Shown: positions 5,523 through 64,000 of the stretch, piece by piece
Position numbering within the stretch: the stretch's first letter is position 1
Layout of the letters: the number at the start of each line of letters is the position of its first letter
Origin: an uncultured cyanobacterium
GTDB taxonomy: Bacteria > Cyanobacteriota > Cyanobacteriia > PCC-9006 > JAAUQQ01
Direction of reading: 5' to 3'
DNA length: 64,000 nt
Assembly (NCBI GenBank): GCA_963718615.1
Contig: OY970368.1
Location: 64,001-128,000, forward strand
Notes under the pieces: model-generated
Database searches by the model: none
What the model saw: the letters and a program-made list of their open reading frames with translations, nothing else
What the model was told of the DNA's origin: nothing
Position numbers and translations under genes: made by a program

Positions 5523-5550
5523 TCACATCAACGAGAAGCACTTGCCCGTC

Positions 5551-5592
5551 AGTGTAGGGAGTCCTCAGGGATGGGGTTGTATCCGTCAAGAC
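5551..5592 (-). promoter_or_regulatory. Putative class II NtcA-activated promoter for the porin-permease-hpxO-uraH-uraD genes
   Basis: Minus strand reads GTC-ttgacgga-TAC (5592-5579; TGT-N10-ACA), then exactly 22 nt, then TACACT (5556-5551). This matches GTA-N8-TAC-N22-TAN3T with one mismatch. Confidence 0.7.
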
Positions 5593-5609
5593 AAATCCCA
5601 ATCTTCCGT

Positions 5610-44834: not shown

Positions 44835-44929
44835 AGGCCAGGATTCACCCTACTCGCCCGATCTCTGACCTACCGCTTGCCGTTCAAAACCCGCCCCCAC
44901 CGTTATTTTTCGAGAGTTTCGGAACCTTT

Positions 44930-46264
44930 ATGTTGAATATCGATACCATCGCCGGTCAAGCCCAGGACATCGCCAAACGCTTAGGCATCGCCAAATACGA
45001 TGTTTCCGGCTCTTCCGTCGATGAAACCAATGTCCAGGTCGATCACGGCGACCCCAAACAGGTGAAAGCGTCCCAGCGATCCAGCGTCACCGTGCGCGTT
45101 TGGAACGACCAGGGTACCGTTGGCATTACTTCCACCTCAGACGTGGATGCAGCGGGTCTGGAACTAGCCCTAAAAACCGCCCATGAGGCCAGTGCCTTTG
45201 GAGCCAAGGAGCATATTCCCGATTTTAGCCCTGAGGCTACGGCTCCTTTGGCCGACATCCATCACGAAAAACACGCCCAGGCATCGGTCTCCAGGTTGAT
45301 CGAGCGCTTGGCCGCTGCGGAAAAAGAGCTCTTGGCCGCCCATGAGGCGATCGAGAGCGTTCCTTACAATGGCCTCTCCCAGCGAGATATCGAACGGTTC
45401 TACCTCAACAGCCAAGGAGCGGTTCGGGCAGAAGGCGGTTCCTACGCCTCCACCTATCTCTATACCAAAACTGCCCAAGAAGGTCGACGTCCCCGCAGCG
45501 CCGGGGCCTTCCGCGTCGCCTATGGCCTCGACCAACTGGATATCCCCGGCTGTATCCAAGAAACCGCTGAAAAAACCATCAGCCACCTCAACTACGAAAA
45601 GGTCAAAAGCGGCAAATACCTGGTTGTCTTTTCCCCTGAAGCCTTTCTCTCGCTTCTCGGTGCGTTTTCTAATCTGTTTAATGCCCAGAGCATTCTCGAT
45701 AATCGCAGTTTATCTAAGGCCGATTCCTTGGGACAGGCGATCGCCACCCCCCGGCTTTCGGTTTACGACGATGCCCTCCATCCAGCCAATATTGGTTCCA
45801 CAGCCTTTGATGACGAAGGCACCCCGACTCGCCGCGTGGCGCTGATCGAAAATGGCGTTCTCAGCAACTTCCTGCACAGCGCAGGCACCGCCAAGCGCAT
45901 GAATGCCCAACCCACGGGCCACGCCAATATGGGCGCGAAGGTGACCGTTAGCCCGCACTTTTACCACATCGCCGGTCACGAAGGCGGCAGCCTCAGCCTC
46001 GAAACCGCTGAAAACGTAATTTACGTTGATGAACTCTCCGCCCTCCATGCTGGCGTTCAGTCCCTACAAGGCTCTTTCTCCTTACCCTTTGATGGTTGGG
46101 TGGTGAATCAGGGGGAAAAAGTGAGCGTAGAATCGGCGACTGTCGCGGGGGATTTCCGGGAGGTGCTGAAGGCGATCGCCCAAGTCGATCGGGAGGAAAA
46201 GCTGACTCCGGGTGGGGTTGCCCCTCATATTTGGGTCGATGGACTATCGGTAACGGGAGAATAA
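44930..46264 (+). CDS. pmbA: TldE/PmbA subunit
   Basis: FDDEGTPT, GSFSLP, TVAGDF; no HExxxH motif; follows tldD. Start at ATG 44930. Confidence 0.9.
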   Translation: MLNIDTIAGQAQDIAKRLGIAKYDVSGSSVDETNVQVDHGDPKQVKASQRSSVTVRVWNDQGTVGITSTSDVDAAGLELALKTAHEASAFGAKEHIPDFSPEATAPLADIHHEKHAQASVSRLIERLAAAEKELLAAHEAIESVPYNGLSQRDIERFYLNSQGAVRAEGGSYASTYLYTKTAQEGRRPRSAGAFRVAYGLDQLDIPGCIQETAEKTISHLNYEKVKSGKYLVVFSPEAFLSLLGAFSNLFNAQSILDNRSLSKADSLGQAIATPRLSVYDDALHPANIGSTAFDDEGTPTRRVALIENGVLSNFLHSAGTAKRMNAQPTGHANMGAKVTVSPHFYHIAGHEGGSLSLETAENVIYVDELSALHAGVQSLQGSFSLPFDGWVVNQGEKVSVESATVAGDFREVLKAIAQVDREEKLTPGGVAPHIWVDGLSVTGE

Positions 46265-48785: not shown

Positions 48786-49155
48786 AGCTCACCCACAAAA
48801 TGATTCTTTCCTTACTGCTTTTCATTCTAAGGGGAAGCTCAAGGGTTACCGCGCGGATTTCCGAGCACCTCTCCCGATCGCCATCAGCCAAGTGAACTGA
48901 GTCTCCGTAGTTTTTGGTGATCCGGATTTTTTCTGAGTAACAACTAATGCTGCAACTTTACAGAACCCAGAGCTGTCGTAAAGATTCAGAAAACCCCGAT
49001 TCAATCCATTGGTGAAGCTTCGATGCCGCTCGTACTATAGGGCATAAGCAGACAGGGATTGAGGCCATTTTCTACAGGTCATTTCAATATCTGTTCTTCG
49101 GCTGGGGTGCCTGAGAAAAGCTTTAGAAGTCTTTGTAAAAAAGGTAGCGTTCGCT

Positions 49156-49851
49156 GTGTCAATGATTTGGAGTTCTCGACCCAAAACTCACTCCCAGTCT
49201 GAGGCTCAGATTGTTTTGAGGACACCGTTCCGCTCGGCAACGGTTCATGCCTCAGCCGAGAGTGTTGCCAAACGATTCTTAGACATTGTCGGCGCTTGTG
49301 CCGGTTTGTTGCTGACGATTTTGCTGTTTCCGGCGATCGCTCTAGCCATCCAAATCGAATCGCCAGGTCCAGTGCTCTATAGCCAAATTCGCTGTGGGCT
49401 GAATGGTCATCCCTTCCGCATTTGGAAATTTCGCTCGATGATTCCCGAGGCCGATCGCTTACAGCATATGGTGAGCAACCAAGCCAAGGGCAATATCTTT
49501 AAAAATGAACATGATCCACGGGTCACCCGCGTTGGGCGTTTTCTGCGGAAAAGCAGTTTGGATGAACTGCCCCAGTTTTGGAATGTCCTCCAGGGCGATA
49601 TGAGCCTCGTCGGGACCCGACCTCCGACCGTGAGCGAAGTTTTGAAGTACGATCGCCACCACTGGGAGCGTCTACGGGTCAAGCCCGGTATCACGGGCGA
49701 ATGGCAGGTCAATGGTCGCTCTTCGGTTTCAGACTTTGAGACGATTGTGGCCTTTGATCGGGCCTATCAGCACAAGTGGTCGTTGCGATATGACATGCTG
49801 TTAATTATCAAGACGTTCGCAGTAGTTCTTAGTCGCCGTGGCGCTTACTGA
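49156..49851 (+). CDS. Bacterial sugar transferase (priming phosphoglycosyl transferase)
   Basis: KRFLDI, KFRSM, DPRVTRVG.FLRK.SLDELPQ, MSLVG.RP, KPGITG.WQV.GR. Confidence 0.92.
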   Translation: MSMIWSSRPKTHSQSEAQIVLRTPFRSATVHASAESVAKRFLDIVGACAGLLLTILLFPAIALAIQIESPGPVLYSQIRCGLNGHPFRIWKFRSMIPEADRLQHMVSNQAKGNIFKNEHDPRVTRVGRFLRKSSLDELPQFWNVLQGDMSLVGTRPPTVSEVLKYDRHHWERLRVKPGITGEWQVNGRSSVSDFETIVAFDRAYQHKWSLRYDMLLIIKTFAVVLSRRGAY

Positions 49852-50404
49852 TTCTAGTACTGAAACCCGTACTCAAACTATTACGATTCCCACCTGGGTG
49901 ACCCTGTCTCGCCTGGTGGGTATTCCGTTTATTATCTATGGCCTCCAGCCAGGGATTGAATTCTCCCGCTGGTGGTCTGTTGGTATTTTTATCGCGATCG
50001 CAGCCACAGACTGGCTCGATGGTTATTTGGCTCGACGCCTCAATCAGGTGACTGATTTGGGTAAATTTTTAGACCCTCTGGTCGATAAGCTGATGATTAT
50101 GGGTCCGCTCCTGAGTTTATTGGTCCTAGGGCAGGTGAACGTTTGGGGCGTCTTTTTGATTTTGAGCCGAGAGATTGCGATCGCCGGTTGGCGGGTCAGT
50201 CAACCCAAAATTTCCGGAGCCAATGTCTGGGGCAAGCTGAAGACCGTCAGTCAGATTGGGGCGATCGCGGTTCTGATCGCCCCTTTGCCACCGGCTTGGC
50301 AAGGAATGGGTCCAGTGCTGTTTTGGGTCGCCGTTGCCCTAACGCTGATTTCAGGGGCCATTTATCTCAAGCCTGACCCCGTCGCCCAAACACCAACATC
50401 TTGA
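49838..50404 (+). CDS. pgsA: CDP-diacylglycerol--glycerol-3-phosphate 3-phosphatidyltransferase
   Basis: TDWLDGYLARR.NQVTDLGKFLDPLVDK, GKLKTVSQ. Confidence 0.92.
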   Translation: MALTDSSTETRTQTITIPTWVTLSRLVGIPFIIYGLQPGIEFSRWWSVGIFIAIAATDWLDGYLARRLNQVTDLGKFLDPLVDKLMIMGPLLSLLVLGQVNVWGVFLILSREIAIAGWRVSQPKISGANVWGKLKTVSQIGAIAVLIAPLPPAWQGMGPVLFWVAVALTLISGAIYLKPDPVAQTPTS

Positions 50405-50414
50405 ATGGGGTTTC

Positions 50415-52988
50415 CTAATGCAGGGTCCGCAGCAGGTTGCGAATTTTAGGCCGCTGCTGTTCCATCACCTGTTCAGGGAAGCTTAGTTCAATCGTGGTGT
50501 TGCTGCCCAGCGGGTCGATCACCTGCTCCACCTGAATCACCTGGGCTAACAGACGACTGGGCAACGGCTCTGTGGCATCTTGGCTGAGCAGCAGCCCCAC
50601 CAGGGCACCGGACTCCCCAAGCCGCTGAAGGTTCTGGGTATTGGCCGGTAGCTCAATCCGCAAACTGCGGCTATTAATCTCCCGTGCCACACCACTGTAA
50701 AACTGCCCTTCCCAATAGAGCTGCACCGCCGCTTCGATTTTCTTGCGCATACGCTGTCCCCGAGCCGGTCGAGCCGGTTGGAAACTGCGCAGTAGACTGG
50801 TAGCAATAAAGCGGAAGGAGTCCAGCGGGCGATCGATCTCCTGACGATTTTGGGCGTACCATTCCCCGACATCGGAATAGATCACAATACAGAGCGCATC
50901 CTGCTGGGCGCGACTGAGATCGATATAGTCGATCGCCAGCACCACTTGGTTGTCGCTGGTCGGAATTGCCCGCACAATCCGGCCATTAACAAAGGCCCGA
51001 GCGCCAAAATCTCCCAAAATTTCGAGCTCAACTTCATCGGGCAGATTAGGCCAATTGTCTAGAACCAGCCGACAGCCCCGTTCGCTGATGTCCAGGGTTT
51101 TGCCTTCGAGGGTTTGACCAGGACTATAGAGCGTCACCGGCAGCTTGCGCTCCAGCCGATGGGCAATGCGCAGTTGGGGTTGCTCGAAGGCTACAAGCAG
51201 CGCCGAAACCAACAGCACCAGATTAAAACAGCTCCAGAAGGCATTGATCAAAGCTGCCTCCGTGGCCTCAGGCCGATAGATCAGCCACAGGGGCACAGCC
51301 GCCAGGGAAGCTGCGACCAACACCGCTACGATGACCAAGGCCTGAGAAGATTCCCAGTCAAAGGTTCGTTTGGTAATGGAGGAGCCTTTGTCGGTGACGT
51401 TAAAATTGCCGAGGCGAGGATTAATCAAGGCCAAAAAGGTCACAATTCCCGCCTGGAAAGACATCGCAAATTCGTAGATTTCATTCCAGAACGAAAAGCG
51501 AACGTTTTTGTAGGGGATAAAGTTGGCGTAGGTCGAGAGAATGATGTGCGGTAGAGCGTAAGCCAGGGTTTCTAAGCCTAAACCGCGAATGGGGTTGATG
51601 CCAAACAGGAGGAAAAGAGTGGGGGCGATCGCATACATCAAGCGCGGAAACCCATAGAAAAAGTGAGAGGTCGCGCTGAAGTAGCAAAGCCGTTGGGACA
51701 GCGAGAGTTTGAGCTTGAGATTTAAGAGCGGATTCTCCAGCCGCAAAATCTGCGCCATTCCCCTCGCCCAACGGACCTGTTGCCCCACATAGGACGAGAA
51801 TTTTTCGGGCGCAAGGCCCGCAATCATAATTTTGTCGTAATAGACCGATTCGTATCCCCGCGAATGGAGTCGAAACGAGGTGTGACAATCTTCGGTCACG
51901 GTTTCCACGGCGATGCCGCCTACCTCTAGGACATGGCTTTTGCGAATGACAGCAGCAGACCCGCAGAAAAAGGCAGAGTTCCAGAAATCATTGCCTTTCT
52001 GGAGCACTTTGTAAAACAGCTCGTTGCCAACCGGCACTCGCCCTCCCGTCAGCAGGTTGCGCTCAAAGGGATCCGGGTTGTAAAACCAGTGGGGCGTCTG
52101 CACCAAGGACACCTTGGGATTAAAGAAAAAGCCGACGGTGTGCTGAAGAAATTGGCGAGAGGGAATATGGTCACAATCGAGGATCATAATCAAATCCCCG
52201 GAAGTCCTGTGCATGGCGGTATTGATATTCCCCGCCTTGGCATGGTCGTTGTTGTCCCGCGTCAGCATCTCGCAGCCCAACTCTTCGCACATGCGGCGAA
52301 GTTCCTGGCGTCGCTCGGGATACTTGCGACCATCGTCTAGGATATAGACCCGCTTTTTATCCTCAGGATAATCCACGGCTAAGGCTCCTAAGGCCGTTTT
52401 GCGGACGATCTCGACATCTTCGTTGTAGGTCGGAATATAGATATCGACCGAGAACCACTGCTCCTGGGGAAAGTTGGCGAGGTCAACGGGTTGGCGATCG
52501 CGCAGTTTCAACGTCTGAAAATAAGACAAAAACAGCGTCATGATCGCATAGAGTTCTGCCATGTACAGCAGCACACTAAAAATGCCGTCCACCCAGTTGT
52601 CGAGCTTGAGTGTATAGGAGGTTCGATAGTGCAGATAGCGCAGCGTGGTCAAGGCGCTGACCCAAATAATCAGCAAGTGCAAATATTCACTGGCCTTGCG
52701 ATCGTCGCGGGACTGCTCTAACTGCACAATGCCCCAGCCAAAGAGCACCAACACCAGGGCGACTAGCGCCTGCTGTCCCAGGGTAATCGGCGTCACAATC
52801 AGCGGCAATGACAGGATCATCAACAGACCCATCAATCCCCACAACAACGCCGGGGGAAGTTTCCCCACTAGCACTTCGAGGCTGTTAGGTAACCAATCGA
52901 CCAATACAGCAACCAGCCCGGAACGGTGAGGTTTCTGGGGGAGTTTCTGGGGGGACTTCTGGGGGGGCTCAGAGTAGGAATGGGTCAC
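50415..52988 (-). CDS. bcsA: Cellulose synthase catalytic subunit (GT2) with PilZ domain(s)
   Basis: PTYNE, DDG, HAKAGN, DCD, QTPH, FFCGS, TED, QQVRW, FNVTDK; PilZ motifs RIAHR and DISERG. Confidence 0.93.
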   Translation of the reverse strand: MTHSYSEPPQKSPQKLPQKPHRSGLVAVLVDWLPNSLEVLVGKLPPALLWGLMGLLMILSLPLIVTPITLGQQALVALVLVLFGWGIVQLEQSRDDRKASEYLHLLIIWVSALTTLRYLHYRTSYTLKLDNWVDGIFSVLLYMAELYAIMTLFLSYFQTLKLRDRQPVDLANFPQEQWFSVDIYIPTYNEDVEIVRKTALGALAVDYPEDKKRVYILDDGRKYPERRQELRRMCEELGCEMLTRDNNDHAKAGNINTAMHRTSGDLIMILDCDHIPSRQFLQHTVGFFFNPKVSLVQTPHWFYNPDPFERNLLTGGRVPVGNELFYKVLQKGNDFWNSAFFCGSAAVIRKSHVLEVGGIAVETVTEDCHTSFRLHSRGYESVYYDKIMIAGLAPEKFSSYVGQQVRWARGMAQILRLENPLLNLKLKLSLSQRLCYFSATSHFFYGFPRLMYAIAPTLFLLFGINPIRGLGLETLAYALPHIILSTYANFIPYKNVRFSFWNEIYEFAMSFQAGIVTFLALINPRLGNFNVTDKGSSITKRTFDWESSQALVIVAVLVAASLAAVPLWLIYRPEATEAALINAFWSCFNLVLLVSALLVAFEQPQLRIAHRLERKLPVTLYSPGQTLEGKTLDISERGCRLVLDNWPNLPDEVELEILGDFGARAFVNGRIVRAIPTSDNQVVLAIDYIDLSRAQQDALCIVIYSDVGEWYAQNRQEIDRPLDSFRFIATSLLRSFQPARPARGQRMRKKIEAAVQLYWEGQFYSGVAREINSRSLRIELPANTQNLQRLGESGALVGLLLSQDATEPLPSRLLAQVIQVEQVIDPLGSNTTIELSFPEQVMEQQRPKIRNLLRTLH

Positions 52989-55690
52989 GAGTCTTCTCCA
53001 TCAACGCGCTTGAGGGAAATCTGCGAAATGCCGTACATCAACAAACAGAGGGAGAATACGGCAGTGGGTAGAATGAACCAGCGTTCCTGAATAAACCGCG
53101 AGGAGCGGCTCAAGAGGCTAGCCGTCGCAATCCGGCGGGTCTGACTTTCCCGCAGAACTTTGAACTCGTAGGCTCTCGGATCGTAGGGCAGAGGATTCTC
53201 GGCGTTGGCACTGATGAGGACTGTATCCCCATCCAATTGGAAAAACCAAATGTCGTTTTCCAGGAACTGTTGCAGGGTGTTGAGCCCCGTCTCTCCCTGG
53301 GCCGCCAGGGCCAGAACCACGCGATCGCGATTCCAAGGGGAAAGAATTTGTTTGATAATGCCCTGCCGATCCGCCAGGGTTTGGATTTGGGTTCCTGGGT
53401 TTGTAGCTGGGTTTGTAGCTGGGTCGGGGGTTGAATCGGCTTTGATTTGGCGACTGGAAGCAGGGCCGAGGGCTAAAGTTCCGCCGCTGAGGGCTTCCTG
53501 GAGGGGGAAGCGATCGCGCGGTCCAATGGCAATCAAATTGTCCTCCTGCTTGGCCGTTTCTGAAAGATCCGCCACGGGCACAGCTTCGATTTCAATGGCC
53601 TGGGAAGCACTCAAACGTCCTAAGCGTTCGCTCATCTCCAGCAACGTCAGCAGCGTGCCCGCACTGGGGTCATCGGGAACCACCAGCGTCGTCGCCGACA
53701 GATCCTGCGGAGCCGCAAAGGGATACCCCACCTGGAGCAGTTTCAGGTTGGGCAAATCGACAGATTGCTCACGTTTGAGGTCAAAGCGGGTGTCGCTGTG
53801 CAAGGTGGCCCAGAGCTGGCGATCGGCCATGATGCCGCAGTCACCACCGCCATTGGGACTGAGCTGGAAGGAGATTCGCAGTTTGGAGTCAGGTTTGATC
53901 AGGTTTTCCGGCAGGGTGACATTGAGTTTCTCCCGCGTTGCCCCTTGGGGTTTGGTCAGCCGTTTCCCGGCGATCGCCACATCATCCAGGGTCACCTCCA
54001 CCGTCGAGCGACGGGGATCTAGCTGGGGACCATAGCTATATTCCAACTGCATGGTATTGCCCCGCAGAAAATGATCATCGGGCAGCGCCCGAAAATCGAT
54101 TTCAATCGGTGGCGTCGCCGAGGTGCGCACGGTCGTGTCTTGGAAAGCCTCGCCATTGGCCTGCTTCAGGTTACTTAGGCGAAACTCGTCCGTTTGGGGC
54201 AAATGCTGGGGCCAATCCCGTGGCGCGGGGGCGGTGGGTGTAGACACCGATTCCACCAAGATCCCTTGACCTGAGCCAATGGCAGCACTATCTTGTGTCT
54301 GCAACAGCTGCACCGCTTTCAATACCCCTTCATCCCCATTGCCCGTAGCGACCAAAACCGGTGTTTTGCCATCGTTTGTGGTGGTCAGCATCAACACACC
54401 CACATCCCCCGGCAGCAGCTTACCTTTGCCGTCTAACACCTGACCCTTATTGAGCTTGAAGGGCAGTTTCAGACTCTCCAGCAGGGGTTGAGAGGCAGGG
54501 GTTCCCAAAACAACTAGGCTCTCGTTCCAAGCTAGCTTCGCGGTCTCCTTTGCCGAGGACAAAGACAAGACTCGCGTTTTTAGAGGACGGTAAGCCGCTT
54601 GACGCCCCATTCCTGCTTGAAAACGGCTGGCGGCGGTCAACCAAGTCTTGTCCACCTGCTTCGGCTGGGCATAGACCATGGAACTGGGGTCGAGGGCAAG
54701 TCGGTCAAAGAAGGGATAGGGGAAATTTTCAAAGGCTAAAGGAACCGACTGGGTTTGGTAACCCAAAATCAGTTTTGAGTCCGGTAAAATCTCCGTCCAC
54801 AGGGCCGGGTCCGCTGGATTAGAGCAGGCTTTGTCGTTGTTTTGCTGGGCAACCAGCACAATCTCGTTGTAGTCCTGGATGAGTTCCACCGGAATATCGA
54901 CTAGAACTTCTCCAATTTCAGACTTTTTCTGCTGGAGCGGCACACTGCCAATACTCGTTCCATTGACCCGAATGGTGAGATTGGAGCGATCGGGCAGCAG
55001 GTCCGGAGAATTCTGATAGCGAATCAGGGCTTGAGCGGTCTTGACCTTCCAGGACGTGGGACGGTTGAATCCCAGTCGGCGCTCTGCATACACCCCTTGC
55101 AGTCTCAGGCTATTGCCCACGATCGGACTGCGGTTGAATTCTAAAACATAACGACTGAGAGGACCGACATTGGCCTCCTTAGCGTCCCCGGAAGCCGCTT
55201 GATTGGAATCTGATTGAGCAGTGGCCGCCGCCGGTTCAGCGATCTGTTCTGGAAGAGGATCGCGATCGCCCCCAGGCACTGGCTCCACTGGGGCCATATC
55301 CGGTGCATACGCTGGCTGCGGATCTTCAGAGTCTGGATAGACCGGCTGTGGCTCCTCATACACCGGCTGCGGATCATAGGCAGGCTGCGGCTCCTCATAC
55401 ACTGGCCCTGGATCATAAACGGGCGGAGCTGGGGCGGGTTGGTAGACCGGGGCGGGCGCTGGGTCGCTGGGAAGCGCGTAGCGTTCGATCAGACTATTTT
55501 CCTGGGCCTCAACCTCCCCTTCTTGGGCGATCGCCCTAGGCCCAGAGGACGCTCCTAGCAGCCAGCCGGGCATCAAGAGCAAACCACCAACGGTTCCTAA
55601 CACCAGGGTTTTACGGAGCAAGACGACTCCCCGCCCCAGTGGATGACAGCGAACCATGGGCATTCGGGGGCGATACGGAAGGCGCTTCAT
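52985..55690 (-). CDS. bcsB: Cellulose synthase periplasmic subunit BcsB
   Basis: Signal peptide, two carbohydrate-binding/flavodoxin-like repeats (LWTEILPDS...FPYPF; LWATLHSDT...LPNL....YPF), C-terminal TM; stop overlaps the bcsA start. Confidence 0.85.
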   Translation of the reverse strand: MKRLPYRPRMPMVRCHPLGRGVVLLRKTLVLGTVGGLLLMPGWLLGASSGPRAIAQEGEVEAQENSLIERYALPSDPAPAPVYQPAPAPPVYDPGPVYEEPQPAYDPQPVYEEPQPVYPDSEDPQPAYAPDMAPVEPVPGGDRDPLPEQIAEPAAATAQSDSNQAASGDAKEANVGPLSRYVLEFNRSPIVGNSLRLQGVYAERRLGFNRPTSWKVKTAQALIRYQNSPDLLPDRSNLTIRVNGTSIGSVPLQQKKSEIGEVLVDIPVELIQDYNEIVLVAQQNNDKACSNPADPALWTEILPDSKLILGYQTQSVPLAFENFPYPFFDRLALDPSSMVYAQPKQVDKTWLTAASRFQAGMGRQAAYRPLKTRVLSLSSAKETAKLAWNESLVVLGTPASQPLLESLKLPFKLNKGQVLDGKGKLLPGDVGVLMLTTTNDGKTPVLVATGNGDEGVLKAVQLLQTQDSAAIGSGQGILVESVSTPTAPAPRDWPQHLPQTDEFRLSNLKQANGEAFQDTTVRTSATPPIEIDFRALPDDHFLRGNTMQLEYSYGPQLDPRRSTVEVTLDDVAIAGKRLTKPQGATREKLNVTLPENLIKPDSKLRISFQLSPNGGGDCGIMADRQLWATLHSDTRFDLKREQSVDLPNLKLLQVGYPFAAPQDLSATTLVVPDDPSAGTLLTLLEMSERLGRLSASQAIEIEAVPVADLSETAKQEDNLIAIGPRDRFPLQEALSGGTLALGPASSRQIKADSTPDPATNPATNPGTQIQTLADRQGIIKQILSPWNRDRVVLALAAQGETGLNTLQQFLENDIWFFQLDGDTVLISANAENPLPYDPRAYEFKVLRESQTRRIATASLLSRSSRFIQERWFILPTAVFSLCLLMYGISQISLKRVDGEDS

Positions 55691-55891
55691 AAGGCGTTCA
55701 AAATCCCAGAGATCAGCATTAAAGGAGATGCAAAGCAGGAAATACAGCACCCCCAAACAGGGGTTATAGAATCAGACTGCCCAAATTTGTATAAAGATGT
55801 GTCTAAAACCCTAATCACTTCGGTGAAAAAAAACAATCACAGGAACGCCTCAAGCCGCCTCAAGTCGGTGTTCGTCGGTGTTGTCATCGCC

Positions 55892-57397
55892 CTAGGGAGG
55901 CGAGACTTGGAGGAGCGGCGAGCTGGGCGTCAGGGGCGGGAAAAGACCTAACCAGGCAAGATTTTGACTGTAATAAGCCGAGGCATCATCCCATAATCCC
56001 GCTTGATAGGTCGTCCACAGCTTCTGCTGAAATAACCGCGCAGCGAGGTCCGGGTCAGTCCATTGCAGGGCGCTGTAGAGCATGCCATATTGCGACGTGG
56101 CTTCGTAGGTTGCGATCGCCTTCCCTCGCAGATCAATTTGGGCCGGGATAAACTGTTGCGATCGCAACCGATCAACCAAATAAACCAAATGCTCTTGCAA
56201 AAAGCGTTTGGCTTCCGCAGCATCAGCCCCCGAAGCGTCAACCCCCGCCAAATCCCAGGCCACGCGCCACCAAACCCGGTAGGCATCAAAGCTGTATTGG
56301 GTGAGTAAATCTCCTGAGGCATCCAAGGGAGCAAACCGCTGGGAGGGACGGTCCCAGGCCACCCAGTCGCTGGGCAGACCCACCGCTGAGAGCTGGGCAG
56401 ATTGATTCAACACAAAGTAACTGGACTCCACGAGACTCAGCCAGTCGCGATCGCGATCCACCGTGGCAAACAGGCGAAAGGCAAAGGGCGCAAGGTAGGA
56501 GGGATTGAGGATGAGGCGATCGCCCCGAACAAAGGCCTCTCGGGGACCGGGCAACAGGTAGCGACGTTGGGGAGGACTAGAGGTTGCGGTTGGGGCAGCC
56601 TTTTCTGCAACACCTTCTGAAACTGAAACAGCATCTGGAACAGCCGTGTCTGGAACAGTCGTGTCTGGAACAGCCGTGCCCAAAGTCCAGAGGTCTTGGA
56701 GCTTGGTTTGAGCAAGGGCCAAATAGTCCGGGCGATTCCAGCGGCGCGAGGCCAGAATCAGCGCCGTGGCGGCGTCGATATCGGCATCCGTGGCAAAGTT
56801 ACCATCGACAATGCCCCAAGCGGTGTCACCGGGTTCGCGCCCCCATTTCCAAGCCCACAGACTATCGAGGGGCAGACCGTTGCGCTGACGGCGCAGGTTG
56901 TTTTCCCCCCACTTCAGCGTGCGGGCAAAGGTGTCTGGGTCATCGATCAAGACGGCCCGGAGCATGGCGTAGGCTTGACTCTCGGAGGTAGAGCGCCCCT
57001 CGGCCTCCCAATCGATCACCCGGCCATCCGCTTGAATAAACCGGTTTCGATAGGTTTCCCAGCTTTCCTGAAGCAGCTCGGGGCTGGCGGCACGGGGCTG
57101 ATTAAGATCTAAAGGGGGCAAACCCGTCGAGCTTGGAGACGTCGAGCTTTGAGGCGTCGAGCTTTGAGGAGAGGTTGTCCCAGAGGGCGAGGCCGTGGGA
57201 GAGAGCACCGGAGAGGGCTCGGGCAACCGTTCTAGCCAGCGGCAGCCCGAAATTGCCATGCTGCTGAGGAAACCCAGCAAAACACTGAGCAAGATTTTAG
57301 ACAAAATTCTGGGCAAGATTCTGGACCAGCCACAAAGGACAATCCTGCCCCTTGCTCGATAGTGTTTCCCAGGACCCAGCTTTGGCATATTCAACAC
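55892..57397 (-). CDS. bcsZ: Glycoside hydrolase family 8 endoglucanase (BcsZ-like), probable lipoprotein
   Basis: DGRVID, TSESQAYAM, ATDADI, LNPSY, GLPSDW, FDAYR, YYSQNL; lipobox-like ISGC. Confidence 0.88.
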   Translation of the reverse strand: MLNMPKLGPGKHYRARGRIVLCGWSRILPRILSKILLSVLLGFLSSMAISGCRWLERLPEPSPVLSPTASPSGTTSPQSSTPQSSTSPSSTGLPPLDLNQPRAASPELLQESWETYRNRFIQADGRVIDWEAEGRSTSESQAYAMLRAVLIDDPDTFARTLKWGENNLRRQRNGLPLDSLWAWKWGREPGDTAWGIVDGNFATDADIDAATALILASRRWNRPDYLALAQTKLQDLWTLGTAVPDTTVPDTAVPDAVSVSEGVAEKAAPTATSSPPQRRYLLPGPREAFVRGDRLILNPSYLAPFAFRLFATVDRDRDWLSLVESSYFVLNQSAQLSAVGLPSDWVAWDRPSQRFAPLDASGDLLTQYSFDAYRVWWRVAWDLAGVDASGADAAEAKRFLQEHLVYLVDRLRSQQFIPAQIDLRGKAIATYEATSQYGMLYSALQWTDPDLAARLFQQKLWTTYQAGLWDDASAYYSQNLAWLGLFPPLTPSSPLLQVSPP

Positions 57398-57414
57398 CCC
57401 TTATGGCGATCGCC

Positions 57415-59715
57415 CTAAAACCGCTCCCAAGCAGGCTGAAAACCGCGCTGACGCAGAAAATCCTCTTGAATTTGCCGCATCCGTAACGCCGAACTGCCTG
57501 AACCAACCCCCGCCCGTCGCAAATCCCGAAATTGATCGAGCGCGTCTAGTTTGCGCCCCTGGACAACGAGGAGCTCCGCGAGGGATTGTTGGGCCAAGCG
57601 ATCATTAGGACTATAGGTAAGGATTTGCCCATAGAGACGAGCTGCTTCATCATAACGCCGCTGCTGAAACCTGAGTCCGGCTAAGCCCGCGAGGGCTTCT
57701 GGCTGGTAGGGCTCGCGCTGAAGCACGATGTCATAGGCTTGTCCCGCGCGATCGAGGTCCTTGAGGGCTTGAGCGAGCTGGGCTTCGAGCAGATAGGACG
57801 TAGCACTGTTGGGCTGGAGGGCACGGGACTGGTTGACCAGGCGATCCACTTGGGCTCGGGCTTGGTACTCGTTGCGCAGGGCGATCGCCTCCACCCAGCG
57901 CACCTGGACGGGAATATACGTCGGGTCCGCCGCCGCCAGTGCCCCATATAGCGCTTCTCGATCCTGACGGGCTGGCAGCGTTCCCGCTAGGGTATAGAGC
58001 TCAGGGCTGGTCTCGCCGGGGCGACTTTGCAACCAGCGATTGAGGACACCAGCGGCTTCGTCTTCGGACATCAAATCCGCTTGGTAGGCGATCGCCGCCC
58101 GAGACAGTTGCAACGGCAAATCTCCGGGATTGGCAGCCAGGAGCCGATCGTAAAGGGCGATCGCATCCCGAGGACGGTCCTGGGCCAGACGAATACCAGC
58201 CAACCCTTGGATGGCAGCGGAGCGAATATCGGCATCGCTCGTCCCGGTATTGAGAATCGCAATGTAGCGCGTGGCACTGTCTTCGAGACGACCCTGACGA
58301 CGTTCAATTTCAGCGTAGAGCAGTTGGGGGGCTAAGTCCTGGGCTCCGCTGGGAGTGCGCTGATAGGCGGTCAAGGCGGCCAAGGCACCGACAAAGTCAT
58401 TAGCCTGGATCAGGAGCTGAGCAATCCGAAAATTGAGGAAGGGCACATCTACCTGGGCGGCCAAGAACTGCTGATAGACGGGCAGCAGCTCAGGTAAAGG
58501 TTCAATGGGAACGAGGGCCTGGGCGATCGCCCGTTGCTCTGTTGGACTGGTGGGAAAGGGCTGGAGCAGTCCGGCCAGACGCTGACGGATTTGGCTGTCG
58601 TTGACTTGACCAAGCTGACTTTCGAGGGCCAAGAGCTTGAGACCCAGGACGCGATCGTTCGGGTTCTGGCCAATCAGTCGACGATACAACTCTAGCGCGT
58701 AGGGTCGTTCCGCCGGAATACCGCTCAGCACATCCGCCGCTTCTAGGATCAGCGTCGAGGCAGGAGAGGCCGTTGCTTGCAGCTCAGCCCGATACAGCGC
58801 AGCGGCTTCATTCAGCAGATCGGGAATTTTTTGGGCTTGGCCAATTTCGTTTAAGGCCCGCGCCAAGGGTAAGCGAGCCTCGGGCCGTCCCCGCAGTACT
58901 TCCAGCACCGCTAGGGCATCGGCGGGGCGATTGGCGTCGAGATAGGCTTGGGCCAACTCCGAGCGGATCTGGATGGCGGCGTCATCGGTTCGGTTCGACA
59001 CCAACCCTTCCAGCAGCGAGATCGCCTGGGTGGGATTGCCCGTGCCGCGCAGGGCTCGGGCGTAGGCGATCGCCGCATTTTGTTCCAGCGCCTGCCCCGT
59101 ACTGCGATAGCGATTAAACAGCTCTAATCCCCGCGCATAATCCCCGCTATAGGTATAAATCTGAGCGGCCCCAACCAACACCTCCGGCGAGGCATTGCCT
59201 TTGCTGAGCACTTGCTCGTAATCCGCCAGGGCTTCTGCAAACCGACCCTGATAGCCATAGAGCAACGCCCGCTGCGCCCGCGCTTCGTCATCCTGGGGGG
59301 TGCGATTGAGCAAACGGGTCAGGGCCTCAATCCCGGCGGGCTGCCACTCAGGCCGAAAGCCCCCTAGCAACCCCAGGGTCTTGAGCGCCAGGGTATTATC
59401 TGGGTCCTGTTGCAGGACCGCCTGGTAGGTTTGCCAAGCATCCCCATCGCGACCGGCTCGACGATAGGCGATCGCCAACCCCAGTTTCGCCTCTAGAACG
59501 GTAGGATATTGCCGAATCGCCCGTTGAAAGATTTCAATGGCCCCATCCACCTGCCCTTCCCCTAAACGGGTATAGCCCTCCCGCACAACGGACGGAACCG
59601 ATTCTTGGGCCTGTACCCTCGCGCCTTCAAACCCTCCCAAGGCTGGGGCAGCGGCAAGCATGACCCCCAGGCTCAAACTCAGAACAAACTGGGATGTCCA
59701 GTGACGCGGAACCAT
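57415..59715 (-). CDS. Secreted TPR-repeat protein (BcsC N-terminal-like)
   Basis: Signal peptide then TPR-like helices to the end (QPAWERF); no beta-barrel seen. Confidence 0.85.
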   Translation of the reverse strand: MVPRHWTSQFVLSLSLGVMLAAAPALGGFEGARVQAQESVPSVVREGYTRLGEGQVDGAIEIFQRAIRQYPTVLEAKLGLAIAYRRAGRDGDAWQTYQAVLQQDPDNTLALKTLGLLGGFRPEWQPAGIEALTRLLNRTPQDDEARAQRALLYGYQGRFAEALADYEQVLSKGNASPEVLVGAAQIYTYSGDYARGLELFNRYRSTGQALEQNAAIAYARALRGTGNPTQAISLLEGLVSNRTDDAAIQIRSELAQAYLDANRPADALAVLEVLRGRPEARLPLARALNEIGQAQKIPDLLNEAAALYRAELQATASPASTLILEAADVLSGIPAERPYALELYRRLIGQNPNDRVLGLKLLALESQLGQVNDSQIRQRLAGLLQPFPTSPTEQRAIAQALVPIEPLPELLPVYQQFLAAQVDVPFLNFRIAQLLIQANDFVGALAALTAYQRTPSGAQDLAPQLLYAEIERRQGRLEDSATRYIAILNTGTSDADIRSAAIQGLAGIRLAQDRPRDAIALYDRLLAANPGDLPLQLSRAAIAYQADLMSEDEAAGVLNRWLQSRPGETSPELYTLAGTLPARQDREALYGALAAADPTYIPVQVRWVEAIALRNEYQARAQVDRLVNQSRALQPNSATSYLLEAQLAQALKDLDRAGQAYDIVLQREPYQPEALAGLAGLRFQQRRYDEAARLYGQILTYSPNDRLAQQSLAELLVVQGRKLDALDQFRDLRRAGVGSGSSALRMRQIQEDFLRQRGFQPAWERF

Positions 59716-59822
59716 GAGCTGCTCTATAAAGTAAAAAATAATTCGATCAATCGTAACCATGCGCCGATTCGGTGGGGCCTTCCATTGGGCGAGCGGCCCA
59801 TCGGCAAACAGCAGAGCAAGCC

Positions 59823-62630
59823 CTATTGCTTCAGGCTACCCAGGGGCAGGGTATCAAACTCTGCCTTGAGACGAAAACCCGCCACAATCTCCGAGAATTC
59901 ATTGCGCTCTTGGAGTGAAAAACCCAGGCGCAAGTTGGGCAAAAAGCGAAAATCGTAAAAGAGCTCCAGCACATCCGGCGCGGACTCGGTGCCAAATTGT
60001 CGCCGCAGGCTCTCGTTGGAGAGGGTTCGACCGTAGGCAAGGCCAATGCGATCGTCTGCACTAAAGACATCCTGGAAATTAAATCCTAGGCCAAAGCTAT
60101 CTCCCCCTTCGTTGAGATCCCGATTTTCATAGCGGCCATAGCGGGCAAACAAGCCCATCCGCAGATTGGGAATGTAGTATTCCGCATTGACCCCATAGGC
60201 TTGTTCGCGATCGCCACTCCGCAATCCGGACCCACCATCGGATCGGGGCACCGAAAAAATTTCCTGGAAGCCATCTCTATTGCCCGAATCCTTATCGGTG
60301 ACATAGGAGCCCCGCACAATCGCGTTACCGTAACGCAGGCCAATTTCCCCCGCAAAGCCATCCAGGGCAAATCCACCTAGGTTGCGATCGGAGGAAAACG
60401 CCGCCGCTTTGAGTTCGATATTATCCGTGGCGGTCCAGTTGAGCAGGAGCCCCGGACGGGATCCTAGCCCCGCCGCACTTAGGGCTGGGTTGGTCTGAAA
60501 GGCTTCGTTAAAGAAATGGGTCGCAGAATCCTTGGCAAAACTATTGCGGTCAAAGTAGGACGTCAGGTCCATTTGGCCCACCACAAACCGAAGATTAGGC
60601 AACTGTTCCAGCGACGCAGAGGCATAAAGCTCATTGACGCTAAAACCGGAGGTATTGCCACTGGAAAAGGAATCACCACTGGACACATCCAACGACCCAC
60701 CAAACAGCAAATTTGGCGTGAGTGGATAGACCGTATTCAAACGGGCACGGGCCGAAGTATTACTCCCTTCCGTGAGGAAAACACCCTGTAGACGATACTC
60801 CGGTTTGCCTAGGGCACTGGTCCGCAGCAACTGTCCATCGCGATACTCCGGCAGGCGATCGCCCATCTGCGTCCCTAAGGCTGTGGCGTTGGCCTCAGCG
60901 GGCAGCGGGCCGCCAAGGGCTTCGGAGGTTTCGATGGGGATCGGCGTCGTCGGCGTCGGGAGAATTCCGGGGGGATAAAGGCTGGGGGGAGACGGCAGCA
61001 CTGGCGCTCCTCCAAGGGATCCGCCCCCTAAGGTCCCGTTTAACGCTCCCGTTAATGGCGGTGCGGGCAAGGACAGGGTAGGCAAAGTGGCGAGATTGCC
61101 AGTAGCGAGATTGCCAGTAGCGAGATTGCCGTTGGGAACAGGTGTGGCCGGGTTATTAGCGTAGGGATTGGGATAGGCAGTGGCGTAGGGATTGAGGTAA
61201 GGGTTGGGGTAGGCAGTAGCGTAGGGATTGGGATAAGGGTTGGGATAGGCGGTGGCGTAGGGATTGGCGTAGGGGTTAGGGTACGAACCAGGATAAACAC
61301 CGTAGGCGCTGGGATAGGGCTGAGGGTATCCCGGATAAACCGGATAGGGCATTTGAGCGGCTATCGGATACATCGGCATTCCCTGGGGCATCATTCCCTG
61401 GGGCATTCCCTGAGTCATGCCCATGGGAGCCGGTACAGGCACGAGGTAGATGGGCATACCCATCGGCATTCCCTGGGGCATCATTCCCTGGGGCATCATT
61501 CCTTGGGGCATTCCAGGCGGTAGGGGAGCAGGGTAGGCCAGGTAATAGGTCGGTTGTGGCAGGGGCTGTGGGGCTGGATAGCCGGTCATCATGCCATAGC
61601 CATAGGGCGCAGGGCTGGGATAACCGGGCTGGACATAACCCTGTTGAGGATAACTGGGCATTGCTTGACTGACCTGAGCTGCTGGTGCTTCGTACCCCGG
61701 AAAGGGCATTGCCGGAGTCAGCACAGGCAAGCCATTGGCCTCTCCCGTCAGGGGTTGTAGCGCAACGGGTAGAGGAACAGATGACGAAATCGGCGAAGCG
61801 GAACGTAGTCCTAAGTTTCCCTGTGAATCTCGATTGGCAATCAGCGCTGATCCAGGCCGTGGCGGTGGGGGTAGTGTTGGTGCTGTTAGGGTCGCGGCTA
61901 AATTAGGAGCAGCAGGAGCGGCAACCGGCAATTCTGGCTTAAGTCCAGTTTTGGAACGGGGCAGAACCGAACGATAACGCTGGGCCGGAACCGATACCGC
62001 TGCGATCGCCCCCGCAAATTGACGAACCTCTTGATCAACCGTTGGATCAACCTCTTGAGCAACTTGATCAACCCTTGGACCAACTTCTGAAGCAACCGCT
62101 GGACTAGTTTCTTCTGCGGCAACCGCTGAACTCATCCCTGTTTCCAGTCCCGCTTGGGCCACTTCGACAGTTTCTTGAGACGGTTTGGGAGTGAGCTTAT
62201 CAAGACGATTAGGGGGTTTACTCAAATAATCCGTTGCCGTGGCCGCCGCTAGATTTCCGGCGATCGCCGCCATCCCATCCACCCCCCAGTTTTCTTCCTC
62301 CGCAGGACGCCCACCGACCCAGGCACCTGACTCCCCTTGCCCTGGATCTTCTCGAACAGGCTCCCCTTGCACGCGCGGCAAGGGCTCCGCATGGACCATA
62401 CTGGTTGCGAGCAGAACCGAGAGGGTACCCATGGACCCCATCCGTCGCAGTTGTCGTCTCAGTGGCGATGGGCAGGAAAACCGGGCGAACTGCCCAATGC
62501 TGAAACTCAGCGGGCTGCAACGCAAAATCGGCGAGATCACTGCGAATAAACGGATAAACTGACTAGCCATGCCTCTCACACCAGGGGATAAACGCTCGGA
62601 ACGGTGCTCTCTGCAATCCTGACTCACCAT
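59823..62630 (-). CDS. Putative carbohydrate-porin-like outer-membrane protein with a long low-complexity N-terminal region
   Basis: C-terminal ~320 aa has alternating beta-strand pattern with GQMDLTSYFDRNSFA, LFARYG and LELFYDF (OprB-like). Start may be ATG 62570. Confidence 0.72.
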   Translation of the reverse strand: MVSQDCREHRSERLSPGVRGMASQFIRLFAVISPILRCSPLSFSIGQFARFSCPSPLRRQLRRMGSMGTLSVLLATSMVHAEPLPRVQGEPVREDPGQGESGAWVGGRPAEEENWGVDGMAAIAGNLAAATATDYLSKPPNRLDKLTPKPSQETVEVAQAGLETGMSSAVAAEETSPAVASEVGPRVDQVAQEVDPTVDQEVRQFAGAIAAVSVPAQRYRSVLPRSKTGLKPELPVAAPAAPNLAATLTAPTLPPPPRPGSALIANRDSQGNLGLRSASPISSSVPLPVALQPLTGEANGLPVLTPAMPFPGYEAPAAQVSQAMPSYPQQGYVQPGYPSPAPYGYGMMTGYPAPQPLPQPTYYLAYPAPLPPGMPQGMMPQGMMPQGMPMGMPIYLVPVPAPMGMTQGMPQGMMPQGMPMYPIAAQMPYPVYPGYPQPYPSAYGVYPGSYPNPYANPYATAYPNPYPNPYATAYPNPYLNPYATAYPNPYANNPATPVPNGNLATGNLATGNLATLPTLSLPAPPLTGALNGTLGGGSLGGAPVLPSPPSLYPPGILPTPTTPIPIETSEALGGPLPAEANATALGTQMGDRLPEYRDGQLLRTSALGKPEYRLQGVFLTEGSNTSARARLNTVYPLTPNLLFGGSLDVSSGDSFSSGNTSGFSVNELYASASLEQLPNLRFVVGQMDLTSYFDRNSFAKDSATHFFNEAFQTNPALSAAGLGSRPGLLLNWTATDNIELKAAAFSSDRNLGGFALDGFAGEIGLRYGNAIVRGSYVTDKDSGNRDGFQEIFSVPRSDGGSGLRSGDREQAYGVNAEYYIPNLRMGLFARYGRYENRDLNEGGDSFGLGFNFQDVFSADDRIGLAYGRTLSNESLRRQFGTESAPDVLELFYDFRFLPNLRLGFSLQERNEFSEIVAGFRLKAEFDTLPLGSLKQ
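61090..61515 (-). repeat. Intragenic tandem repeats encoding (GNLAT)n, (YPNPYxNPYATA)n and (MPQGM)n
   Basis: 15-bp and about 36-bp units visible in both DNA and translation. Confidence 0.88.
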
Positions 62631-62861
62631 GACAAGGATCTCAATTGCGACTTTCTAGCAACTGGATCAATACGGAAACGGATGTGTTCATTTAGACAAA
62701 TTATTCCCAGGCTAGAGGATTTAGCCGGAATTGCCAACCCATTGTCTATCAATTATTAGACGGTGAGAAAATAATAAAGATTTTGATGATTTTGGGAACC
62801 TTAAAAGCGAGTCGAGGGCTAATCTATAGCAGCCCACTGGGGCAACCCATAGGCAATACTC

Positions 62862-63611
62862 ATGAAATTTAGAGGGAGTCCAAGAGCTGTGTCCCGTTCT
62901 CTCACCTATGCATTTGCGTTACTCACCCTTGGCTTGGGAGGATTGATGGGCGGTTGTGAAATTCGCCAGGTGCCACTCACAACCTTGTCGCTTGAGGTTA
63001 AGCCCAGCAGTCAAGCCGGAAGCTATCGCCTCTCCGGACGCAGCAATCTGCCCGATGGCACATCACTAACGGTTCAGGGGCTGCGTCAGCTGGGAGCCAC
63101 TAGCGCCCAACAGACACCGGATCAGCCGGAACATTATGCGATTTTGGACCGCAAAGTCGTTGTGGTGAATCAGGGCCAGTGGGAAACAACGCTGCAACTC
63201 TGGCAGGCGGGACCGGCGGGAAACCCTGCGGAAACTTGGCAAATTCGGGTACCTGGGGGCGATCGCAGGTTTCAACCCGACCGCGAGGTCATTTTTACAG
63301 CGAAGACTCCACCCTCCCGCGATGACAAAATCCTGGAGCGTCAGTGGGAGGCCAGTAAGCAAAATCCAGCCGGGGAACAGGTGGAATTTTTGGAAGGTGG
63401 GCAGTGGTCTCTCCAGGTAGAGCAGCGGCTGACGGTAACCCCGCCCCCGGTCAGTCAACAGGACGCAAAGGCAGGCGTGGAGGCGATCGCCCTCCACCGT
63501 CCCCCAGCAACGGAAACCACCGCGACACCACCGGACACCCAGATTTCAGCCCCGCCCCTCGACCCTCCTGTGAGCACAGCGCCCCCCAATCCCGAGGAGC
63601 AATTGCGGTGA
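62862..63611 (+). CDS. Hypothetical lipoprotein divergent from the bcs operon
   Basis: Hydrophobic stretch ending LMGGC; GRSNLPDG beta-rich domain; Pro-rich tail. Confidence 0.72.
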   Translation: MKFRGSPRAVSRSLTYAFALLTLGLGGLMGGCEIRQVPLTTLSLEVKPSSQAGSYRLSGRSNLPDGTSLTVQGLRQLGATSAQQTPDQPEHYAILDRKVVVVNQGQWETTLQLWQAGPAGNPAETWQIRVPGGDRRFQPDREVIFTAKTPPSRDDKILERQWEASKQNPAGEQVEFLEGGQWSLQVEQRLTVTPPPVSQQDAKAGVEAIALHRPPATETTATPPDTQISAPPLDPPVSTAPPNPEEQLR

Positions 63612-63668
63612 GGACGGAACTGTGGCAGAGACAGAGGGCAGGACTGGGGACCAAAGCCTCTAGCCCCT

Positions 63669-64000
63669 CTAGCGTTGGCGCAACTCCAGCGTGGTCGCTC
63701 GACTGGATTGATTATTGAGCCTCGCCGTCAGCTCGATCCGGTAGCGGGTGTCTCGCTGCAAGATTGTGGGACGGGGCACTTGCAACTCAAAACGGCCATT
63801 GGTATCAGCGGTAACCTCCGTATTGAGCAATTCATCTCCGCCAATTTGAAAAACGCCAAAGACTGAGGTGATCGCCGTTACCCGCGCCTGAACCGTCGCA
63901 TTGGGGCTGGTTTCGCCCACTAGGGTAAAGCCTTCGGTTTGGATGCGATCGCCACTGCGATGACTGGTCACCACGGGCGCGAGCGGTGCTGTTCCTGCGG
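63669..64000 (-). CDS. 3' end of a gene extending beyond the window; Ig-like beta-sandwich C-terminus
   Basis: Frame is open to the window edge; GETSPNATV...ADTNGRF pattern resembles bacterial Ig-like domains. Confidence 0.6.
   Translation of the reverse strand, partial: AGTAPLAPVVTSHRSGDRIQTEGFTLVGETSPNATVQARVTAITSVFGVFQIGGDELLNTEVTADTNGRFELQVPRPTILQRDTRYRIELTARLNNQSSRATTLELRQR

Follow-up and report, generated by a model that had tools for sequence, protein, structure and literature searches.

A Probable Split Module for Cellulose Export Built on an OprB-Type Barrel in a Cyanobacterial bcs Locus

We analyzed a stretch of 64,000 nucleotides from an uncultured cyanobacterium (contig OY970368.1 of assembly GCA_963718615.1, positions 64,001 to 128,000; referred to here as the window), in which a run of five genes on the minus strand, from 62630 to 50415, encodes a porin-like protein, a tetratricopeptide repeat (TPR) protein, an enzyme of glycoside hydrolase family 8 (GH8), BcsB, and BcsA with a PilZ domain. 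Together with a lipoprotein gene that diverges from the porin gene, these genes probably make up a six-part cyanobacterial locus for a split, BcsC-like outer-membrane cellulose export module, built on an OprB-type barrel. The locus combines bcs gene content with a barrel of OprB fold and lineage, its genes show near-invariant linkage and are inherited together, and the TPR protein ends in a conserved tail. Cellulose is the presumed product of the locus, and its presumed direction of passage through the barrel is outward.

For bcs systems that lack BcsC, the outer-membrane step of cellulose secretion is a recognized gap, for which the locus gives a concrete candidate. The BcsC_C domain was absent from all cyanobacteria analyzed in a phylum-wide survey, the excerpted text of which does not pursue export (PMC4594306), and loss of BcsC in alpha-proteobacteria was read as a sign of a novel export mechanism in the relevant portion of an operon classification (PMC7112194). 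According to excerpts of a 2021 review (PMC8892547), BcsK is without a porin domain, the neighboring genes are an unlikely source of a porin, and the actors in export are still undetermined. The excerpted text of a 2025 review of cyanobacterial cellulose deals with BcsB-less clusters only and mentions neither 'porin' nor 'BcsK' (PMC12430437). Our full-text literature search found no link of an OprB-type porin to a bcs cluster, Romling and Galperin (2015) and the supplements being the place where the gene might be mentioned.

The Porin-Like Barrel and the Tail of the TPR Protein

The porin-like gene (59823..62630, minus strand) is an open reading frame (ORF) of 935 codons whose translation comprises a leader, a low-complexity linker, and a C-terminal OprB-type barrel. 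Neither the whole protein nor either of its halves has a match in Pfam or NCBIfam, E<=10 included, and comparison with PDB sequences also gave no match. Since the domain libraries are silent, the porin identity was reachable only through family alignment and structure prediction. AlphaFold2, run from the family alignment, gave a 16-strand β-barrel for residues 591–935 (345 residues; 59823..60860, minus strand), with a predicted local distance difference test (pLDDT) of 91.5 and a predicted template modeling score (pTM) of 0.88. In the Foldseek search of this model, OprB of P. putida (4gey) ranks first (E 3.8e-15, TMq 0.66) and 16-strand porins of the OmpF/OmpC type come next; the 50 listed matches do not include BcsC, AlgE, or PgaA.

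The barrel represents a compact, separate cyanobacterial subfamily. A word-indexed search returned 892 matches, and the 120 that were listed are, besides the query, 60–81% identical to it; the named ones are all cyanobacterial, several are labeled 'carbohydrate porin', and many carry precomputed PF04966 (OprB) labels. Leptolyngbya boryana and Leptolyngbya sp. NIES-3755 are among the strains with a close homologue. An exhaustive search of 1.84 billion representatives gave 177 matches at E<=1e-3, including 129 at E<=1e-30, and past the gap that follows this latter group lie proteins of about 400–470 residues at approximately E 1e-8. Seven of eight nearest outgroup proteins tested are bona fide OprB (PF04966, 1e-12 to 1e-38). 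The barrel is always C-terminal in the proteins of the exhaustive search, and no fusion of TPRs to the barrel was found, with none of the 12 longest family members carrying TPR domains.

Within the aligned family, 32 of 60 members match PF04966 at E<=0.01 (best 2e-10). The OprB signature G-x-x-DLT-x-YFD-x-N (G..DLT..FD.N..A), located in the inner loop L3, is common to the subfamily and classical OprB, and residues G95, D98, L99, T100, F103, D104, and N106 do not vary either within the subfamily or in the four bona fide OprB proteins compared with it. In an alignment with four classical OprB proteins, the barrel is 22–25% identical to them. The barrel motif DLTSYFDRNSFAKD was considered as a hallmark of the bcs-linked subfamily and rejected, as its core is also present in classical OprB proteins. 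The barrel has no match to PF05420 (BcsC_C) or PF13372 (Alginate_exp), and comparison of its profile with BcsC of E. coli K-12 by hhalign gave a probability of 0.4%, that is, no relation. The barrel belongs to the OprB lineage as a divergent member and is unrelated to the known exopolysaccharide export barrels.

The TPR protein (781 residues; 57415..59760, minus strand) matches TPR_19 at 1.1e-31 and many other TPR models of Pfam and NCBIfam. It has no BcsC_C domain and reaches 27 bits with the NCBIfam BcsC model, against a cut-off of 858. Its matches among PDB sequences are generic and designed TPR proteins only, and hhalign with E. coli BcsC gave only a local TPR match (probability 43%). The N-terminus resembles a signal peptide and contains no Cys, hence no lipobox, so the protein is presumably periplasmic and not a lipoprotein.

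Conservation in the TPR protein is highest at its extreme C-terminus. The last 20 residues, 762–781 (57418..57477, minus strand), end in QIQEDFLRQRGFQPAWERF and form an invariant tail that conservation and a complex model point to as a docking peptide. The motif RGFQPxWE stands at the C-terminus in all 70 loci with a readable end, mostly followed by RY or RF alone and in Nostocales by a short basic extension; R772, G773, F774, Q775, P776, W778, and E779 are invariant in the TPR alignment of 67 rows.

A complex was predicted from the barrel alignment and TPR residues 400–781. Its interface score (ipSAE) is 0.82 (0.81, 0.83, and 0.82 in the individual runs) compared with 0.01 for the best of three controls; the mark for this score was attained in 116 of 157 solved complexes and in 2 of 215 mismatched pairs, counts that hold only approximately here, custom alignments having been used. 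The runs share at least 55% of their contacts, and the pLDDT of the partner is at least 83. On the TPR side, the confident interface consists of residues 702, 735–739, and 762–780, which includes the invariant tail, and on the barrel side of the periplasmic ends of strands 2–12 together with L3 residues 101–107, in the loop of the OprB signature. The prediction supports a binding mode in which the tail would sit in the periplasmic mouth of the barrel. We know of no solved complex of this kind, and it therefore seems unlikely that the model reproduced a known structure.

A preliminary description of the window, made from the sequence alone, had proposed that BcsC is replaced by a barrel-less TPR protein and an upstream gene ending in a carbohydrate-porin-like barrel, and had suggested structure prediction with Foldseek and co-folding with the TPR protein as checks. 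The family scans and the sequence of the TPR protein agree with the former point; the strand number, the top Foldseek match, and the PF04966 matches of the relatives bear out the latter, and the proposed co-folding gave a score far above its controls. Given that the profile comparison finds no relation between the barrel and BcsC, 'replaced' is a fair word.

Linkage to the bcs Genes and Co-Inheritance

A genome scan with the porin, covering one genome per species for 185,579 species, gave 430 loci, of which the best 80 were examined. Most of these have cyanobacterial titles; a few are titled 'uncultured bacterium', and one is a metagenome-assembled genome labeled Sericytochromatia. Neighbors were counted by tblastn with the window proteins, on the same strand, in loci with sufficient downstream DNA. 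The TPR gene lies downstream of the porin in 71 of 72 loci (at least 2.5 kb of downstream DNA required), GH8 in 60 of 66 (at least 5 kb), BcsB in 59 of 61 (at least 7.5 kb), and BcsA in 59 of 60 (at least 9 kb). One of the apparent losses of BcsB, in locus L018, was discarded as a tblastn artifact, because Pfam finds BcsB there at 3e-102, and the true count is 60 of 61. The preliminary description had expected homologous clusters in other cyanobacteria, and the BcsA count in particular confirms this; its gene order in the window, porin > TPR > GH8 > bcsB > bcsA in one direction, likewise stands, with each ORF in place and matched to its family.

Five of the six loci without GH8 contain a variant cluster, porin-TPR-BcsB-BcsA (L044, L048, L055, L060, and L077). 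In four of these five cases the variant is a second copy and the genome also has a full cluster (Stenomitos frigidus, S. rutilans, Lyngbya sp. HA4199, and Leptolyngbya ES-bin-22). Trees were computed from 56 shared rows, for the porin as a quick IQ-TREE run and for the TPR protein and BcsA with FastTree. L044, L060, and L077 form a clade with 100% support and the same inner topology in all three trees, on stems of 0.59 (porin), 0.51 (TPR), and 0.44 (BcsA). These matching long-stem clades imply that the cluster was duplicated and then diverged as a unit.

The sole real exception to the linkage is L058, a porin homologue of 62% identity with neither a TPR gene nor a bcs gene in the 10 kb downstream of it. 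A lipoprotein homologue (4961–5686) lies directly downstream of this porin, so the pair of porin and lipoprotein also survives without bcs genes. In L058 (1046–5689) the porin is flanked by a divergent GH5 cellulase gene and by this lipoprotein homologue, beyond which lie genes of the pentapeptide-repeat and chemotaxis (MCP, CheA-like) types.

Among 72,556 plasmids searched with the TPR protein, a single record matched, pMIC7113.02 of Allocoleopsis franciscana PCC 7113 (NC_019760.1, L081). Its porin homologue, annotated 'hypothetical protein', is 56% identical to the window barrel, and here too the TPR gene comes after the porin; this porin-TPR pair is divergent from BcsB and a gene of glycosyltransferase family 2 (GT2), which are about 5 kb away. 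The porin and TPR genes have thus been kept together despite divergent bcs genes, which marks the pair as the most stable unit. A WecB/TagA/CpsF glycosyltransferase gene lies between the porin-TPR pair and BcsB/GT2 on this plasmid, which also has toxin-antitoxin modules and a copy of psbA close by.

Other Parts of the Locus and Its Surroundings

The remaining three genes of the run are readily assigned. The GH8 endoglucanase gene (55892..57397, minus strand; 501 residues, PF01270 at 2.8e-33) is BcsZ-like: it matches the NCBIfam BcsZ model at 2.7e-40, under the cut-off, and is 28% identical to E. coli BcsZ in an alignment that covers the segments TSE.Q.Y and S.DA.RV, which we take to be the sites of the catalytic Glu and Asp. 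The bcsB gene (52985..55756, minus strand) encodes 923 residues and matches PF03170 at 1.6e-104. The 857-residue product of bcsA (50415..52988, minus strand) exceeds the cut-off of TIGR03030, the NCBIfam model of the cellulose synthase catalytic subunit (1.1e-213), and has a Pfam PilZ domain (2.5e-12). With such strong family matches and such long ORFs, a chance pattern is ruled out.

The spacing of the five genes is that of an operon, with intergenic gaps of 62 (porin/TPR), 17 (TPR/GH8), and 135 (GH8/bcsB) nucleotides and an overlap of 4 nucleotides between bcsB and bcsA. Scans for promoters (4 sites, with 5.8 expected from shuffled sequence) and terminators (11 sites, with 14.4 expected) showed no excess and are uninformative, so that the limits of the operon are drawn from gene spacing alone. 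The presumed promoter region is the stretch that separates the divergent porin and lipoprotein genes (62631..62861); it contains a single sigma-70-like site, on the minus strand at 62798..62771. Rfam gave zero matches at E<=1 over 49000–64000, this region included, and hence no riboswitch or leader RNA.

The porin begins with an extended N-terminal leader, residues 1–81 (62388..62630, minus strand), in which a conserved D-C-[HR] motif near the start is followed by a hydrophobic segment that ends in LSVLLATSMVHA (...SMVHA), just before EP. About 65 residues precede the hydrophobic segment, which makes the leader unusually long. Many porin homologues have a [DN]C[HR][KR]F-like motif a few residues past the start (MVSQDCREHR in the window) and then a hydrophobic segment with an AxA-type end. 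The recurrence of the start motif supports the upstream start at 62630 and implies the long leader, which may be an extended signal peptide with a putative cleavage site at its end.

The leader is followed by a low-complexity linker rich in Pro, Ala, Gln, Tyr, and Met (approximately residues 82–590; 60861..62387, minus strand), whose coding sequence contains short in-frame tandem repeats with periods of 12, 15, 21, 33, and 36. It is about 500 residues long in the window, and a P-rich linker of 150–700 residues is present across all homologues. The linker has no Pfam match at E<=10 and hence no SLH domain. GC skew has a local peak of 0.25 over 61000–61999, within the stretch that encodes the linker. 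This long proline-rich linker, the invariant docking tail of the TPR protein, and the divergent lipoprotein gene are points that the preliminary description did not contain.

The putative lipoprotein gene (62862..63611, plus strand) encodes 249 residues with a lipoprotein-like start (...LMGGC) and is a conserved, candidate accessory part of the locus. Its Cys32, which follows a hydrophobic segment, is invariant. Among the 67 loci in which the porin ORF is complete and upstream DNA extends over 1 kb or more, 51 have a homologue with the invariant Cys divergently upstream of the porin, and a profile search of all six-frame ORFs found zero further homologues. The AlphaFold2 model has a β-sandwich core (pLDDT 76). 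The protein has no Pfam match, Foldseek against PDB gave zero matches at E<=1e-3, and an Atlas search returned unnamed cyanobacterial clusters only.

The 16 loci without a lipoprotein homologue include clusters of a Coleofasciculaceae type, in which genes for UDP-glucose dehydrogenase, an NAD-epimerase/dehydratase, and other proteins lie directly upstream of the porin and in the same orientation (L011, 4112–8043; also L016, L021, L030, L070, and L079). The presence of these sugar-nucleotide genes hints that the polymer may be modified in such loci. A third upstream family, an ORF of about 270–316 residues of no known family, occurs in L011, L037, L041, L074, and L079.

The genes that flank the locus in the window are unrelated to the bcs cluster. 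Two of them, for a sugar transferase (Bac_transf) and a CDP-alcohol phosphatidyltransferase (49156–50404, plus strand), lie downstream of bcsA and are convergent with it; others encode CBS and HEAT proteins. Of the related loci, only L007 has the convergent pair as well, at a distance of about 9 kb on the upstream side of its porin match. Farther away, at 43365–46264 on the plus strand, are two neighboring metallopeptidase genes of the TldD/PmbA family with overlapping ORFs, which are also unrelated to the bcs cluster.

Export Route, Alternatives, and Comparison with Known Systems

In the route that we propose, BcsA, with its GT2 and PilZ domains, and BcsB would make β-1,4-glucan and move it over the inner membrane, presumably under activation by cyclic di-GMP given the PilZ domain. 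The GH8 enzyme would trim the glucan, the TPR protein would form a periplasmic bridge from the synthase to the barrel, in whose periplasmic mouth its RGFQPxWE tail would dock, and the glucan would exit through this OprB-type barrel. The proline-rich linker of the porin and the divergent lipoprotein would be further conserved parts of the module.

A more far-reaching form of this proposal, which we put forward tentatively, is that an import-type OprB porin has been recruited as a dedicated exporter, that the threaded tail touches the constriction loop, where it acts as a gate of the pore or else forms part of the path of the glucan, and that linker, leader, and lipoprotein complete a module without counterpart in BcsC, AlgKE, PgaA, and PelBC. 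If this were true, it would give a name to the 'as-yet uncharacterized BcsK partner' in cellulose export across the outer membrane, at least in cyanobacteria. As an exporter, the barrel would mean that barrels for polysaccharide export arose a second time, independently, and it would be a candidate part for the engineering of cellulose secretion in cyanobacteria. The porin gene is mis-annotated in public records, as 'hypothetical protein' or 'carbohydrate porin'.

Several points weigh against an export module of this kind. Characterized OprB proteins are known as uptake channels, and the barrel of the window itself misses the Pfam OprB model even at E<=10. The score of the predicted complex is the model's own confidence, and the contacts of the tail reach the inner loop L3; should these contacts be real, the tail might block the pore instead of feeding it. 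The linkage counts describe the 80 loci most similar to the query, the other 350 of the 430 being more distant. Lastly, the porin of L058 adjoins a divergent GH5 cellulase gene, and uptake of cellodextrins would also fit such an arrangement.

The same contacts would suit a barrel that only anchors the TPR scaffold in the outer membrane, the tail being a plug or anchor, while the glucan stays within the envelope or uses another channel: they line much of the periplasmic rim and reach L3, and the lumen may be filled. However, a 16-strand sugar-porin fold with the OprB constriction motif exceeds the needs of an anchor, BcsC likewise has a 16-strand barrel, and no alternative channel gene is conserved in the cluster. 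We consider an anchor unlikely, even with the cellulose layer that the excerpted text of a review places between peptidoglycan and outer membrane in Synechococcus PCC 7002, a strain whose synthase type differs (PMC12430437).

The barrel could also be a porin for uptake or recycling of the cello-oligosaccharides released by GH8 or of external glucans, with cellulose leaving by other means or remaining in the envelope. Such a porin would account for a fold and family shared with OprB carbohydrate porins, for the solitary L058 copy beside the GH5 cellulase, and for the usual presence of GH8 in the cluster (60 of 66 loci). Yet the porin is tied more tightly to the TPR gene (71 of 72) than to GH8 and is kept in the five loci of the GH8-less variant, the predicted docking of an invariant TPR tail would be needless for an uptake porin, and no genes for sugar transporters or kinases were seen in the conserved cluster, all of which makes uptake quite unlikely as its role. 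That the polymer is a modified or mixed glucan, so that the unusual outer-membrane module reflects a different cargo with its architecture unchanged, seems very improbable: the sugar-nucleotide genes upstream of the porin in Coleofasciculaceae-type loci, the WecB/TagA/CpsF glycosyltransferase of the Allocoleopsis plasmid cluster, and the Bac_transf and CDP-alcohol phosphatidyltransferase genes of the window would fit it, but BcsA lies above a curated cellulose synthase cut-off, the cluster has a BcsZ-like GH8 enzyme, and the extra sugar-nucleotide genes are missing from the window and most loci.

The split export module that we favor resembles the BcsC systems of E. coli and Komagataeibacter in its bcsA-bcsB-GH8 cluster with a long periplasmic TPR array and a 16-strand barrel, the number of strands that the BcsC barrel also has, and, in the predicted complex, also in having the C-terminal end of its TPR array at the barrel. 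BcsC carries N-terminal TPRs and the PF05420 barrel in one polypeptide, whereas the window has two polypeptides with a predicted non-covalent joint at the tail, a reversed gene order, and a barrel of the OprB lineage that is not homologous to BcsC_C. As in the AlgK/AlgE system, the genes for scaffold and barrel are separate and lie in a synthase-dependent polysaccharide cluster. AlgK is a lipoprotein, and AlgE has an Alginate_exp barrel of 18 strands, unlike the TPR protein of the window, which has no lipobox Cys, and its 16-strand barrel, which has no Alginate_exp match. By analogy with AlgK/AlgE, the TPR protein and the barrel may be regarded as a functionally split BcsC.

OprB (PF04966; 4gey of P. 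putida) shares with the barrel the fold, as its best structural match, the signature motif, and the 16 strands. The subfamily differs from it in the long proline-rich N-terminal linker, the bcs neighbors, and the predicted TPR partner. The Xcs system of Thermosynechococcus is another case of cyanobacterial cellulose secretion without BcsC. It consists of XcsA, the HlyD-like XcsB, and TolC, has no BcsB, and uses an HlyD/TolC route similar to an efflux pump, as described in excerpts of two reviews (PMC8892547, PMC12430437); the locus in the window, in contrast, contains BcsB as well as a TPR protein and a porin, and the cluster has no HlyD family match.

The closest likeness in gene content is to the type III bcs clusters, which have a porin-less TPR protein, BcsK, together with bcsA, bcsB, and bcsZ, and no BcsC, BcsD, BcsE, or BcsG. 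Such bcsK clusters occur in some alpha-proteobacteria and cyanobacteria (Romling and Galperin 2015, as cited in the excerpted text of PMC8892547). Our assignment to type III follows gene content under the definition given in that excerpt (PMC8892547), and the TPR protein is BcsK-like by role. What sets the present locus apart from the BcsK clusters as reviewed is the gene for an OprB-type barrel, 62 nucleotides upstream of the TPR gene in the window and adjacent to it in 71 of 72 loci.

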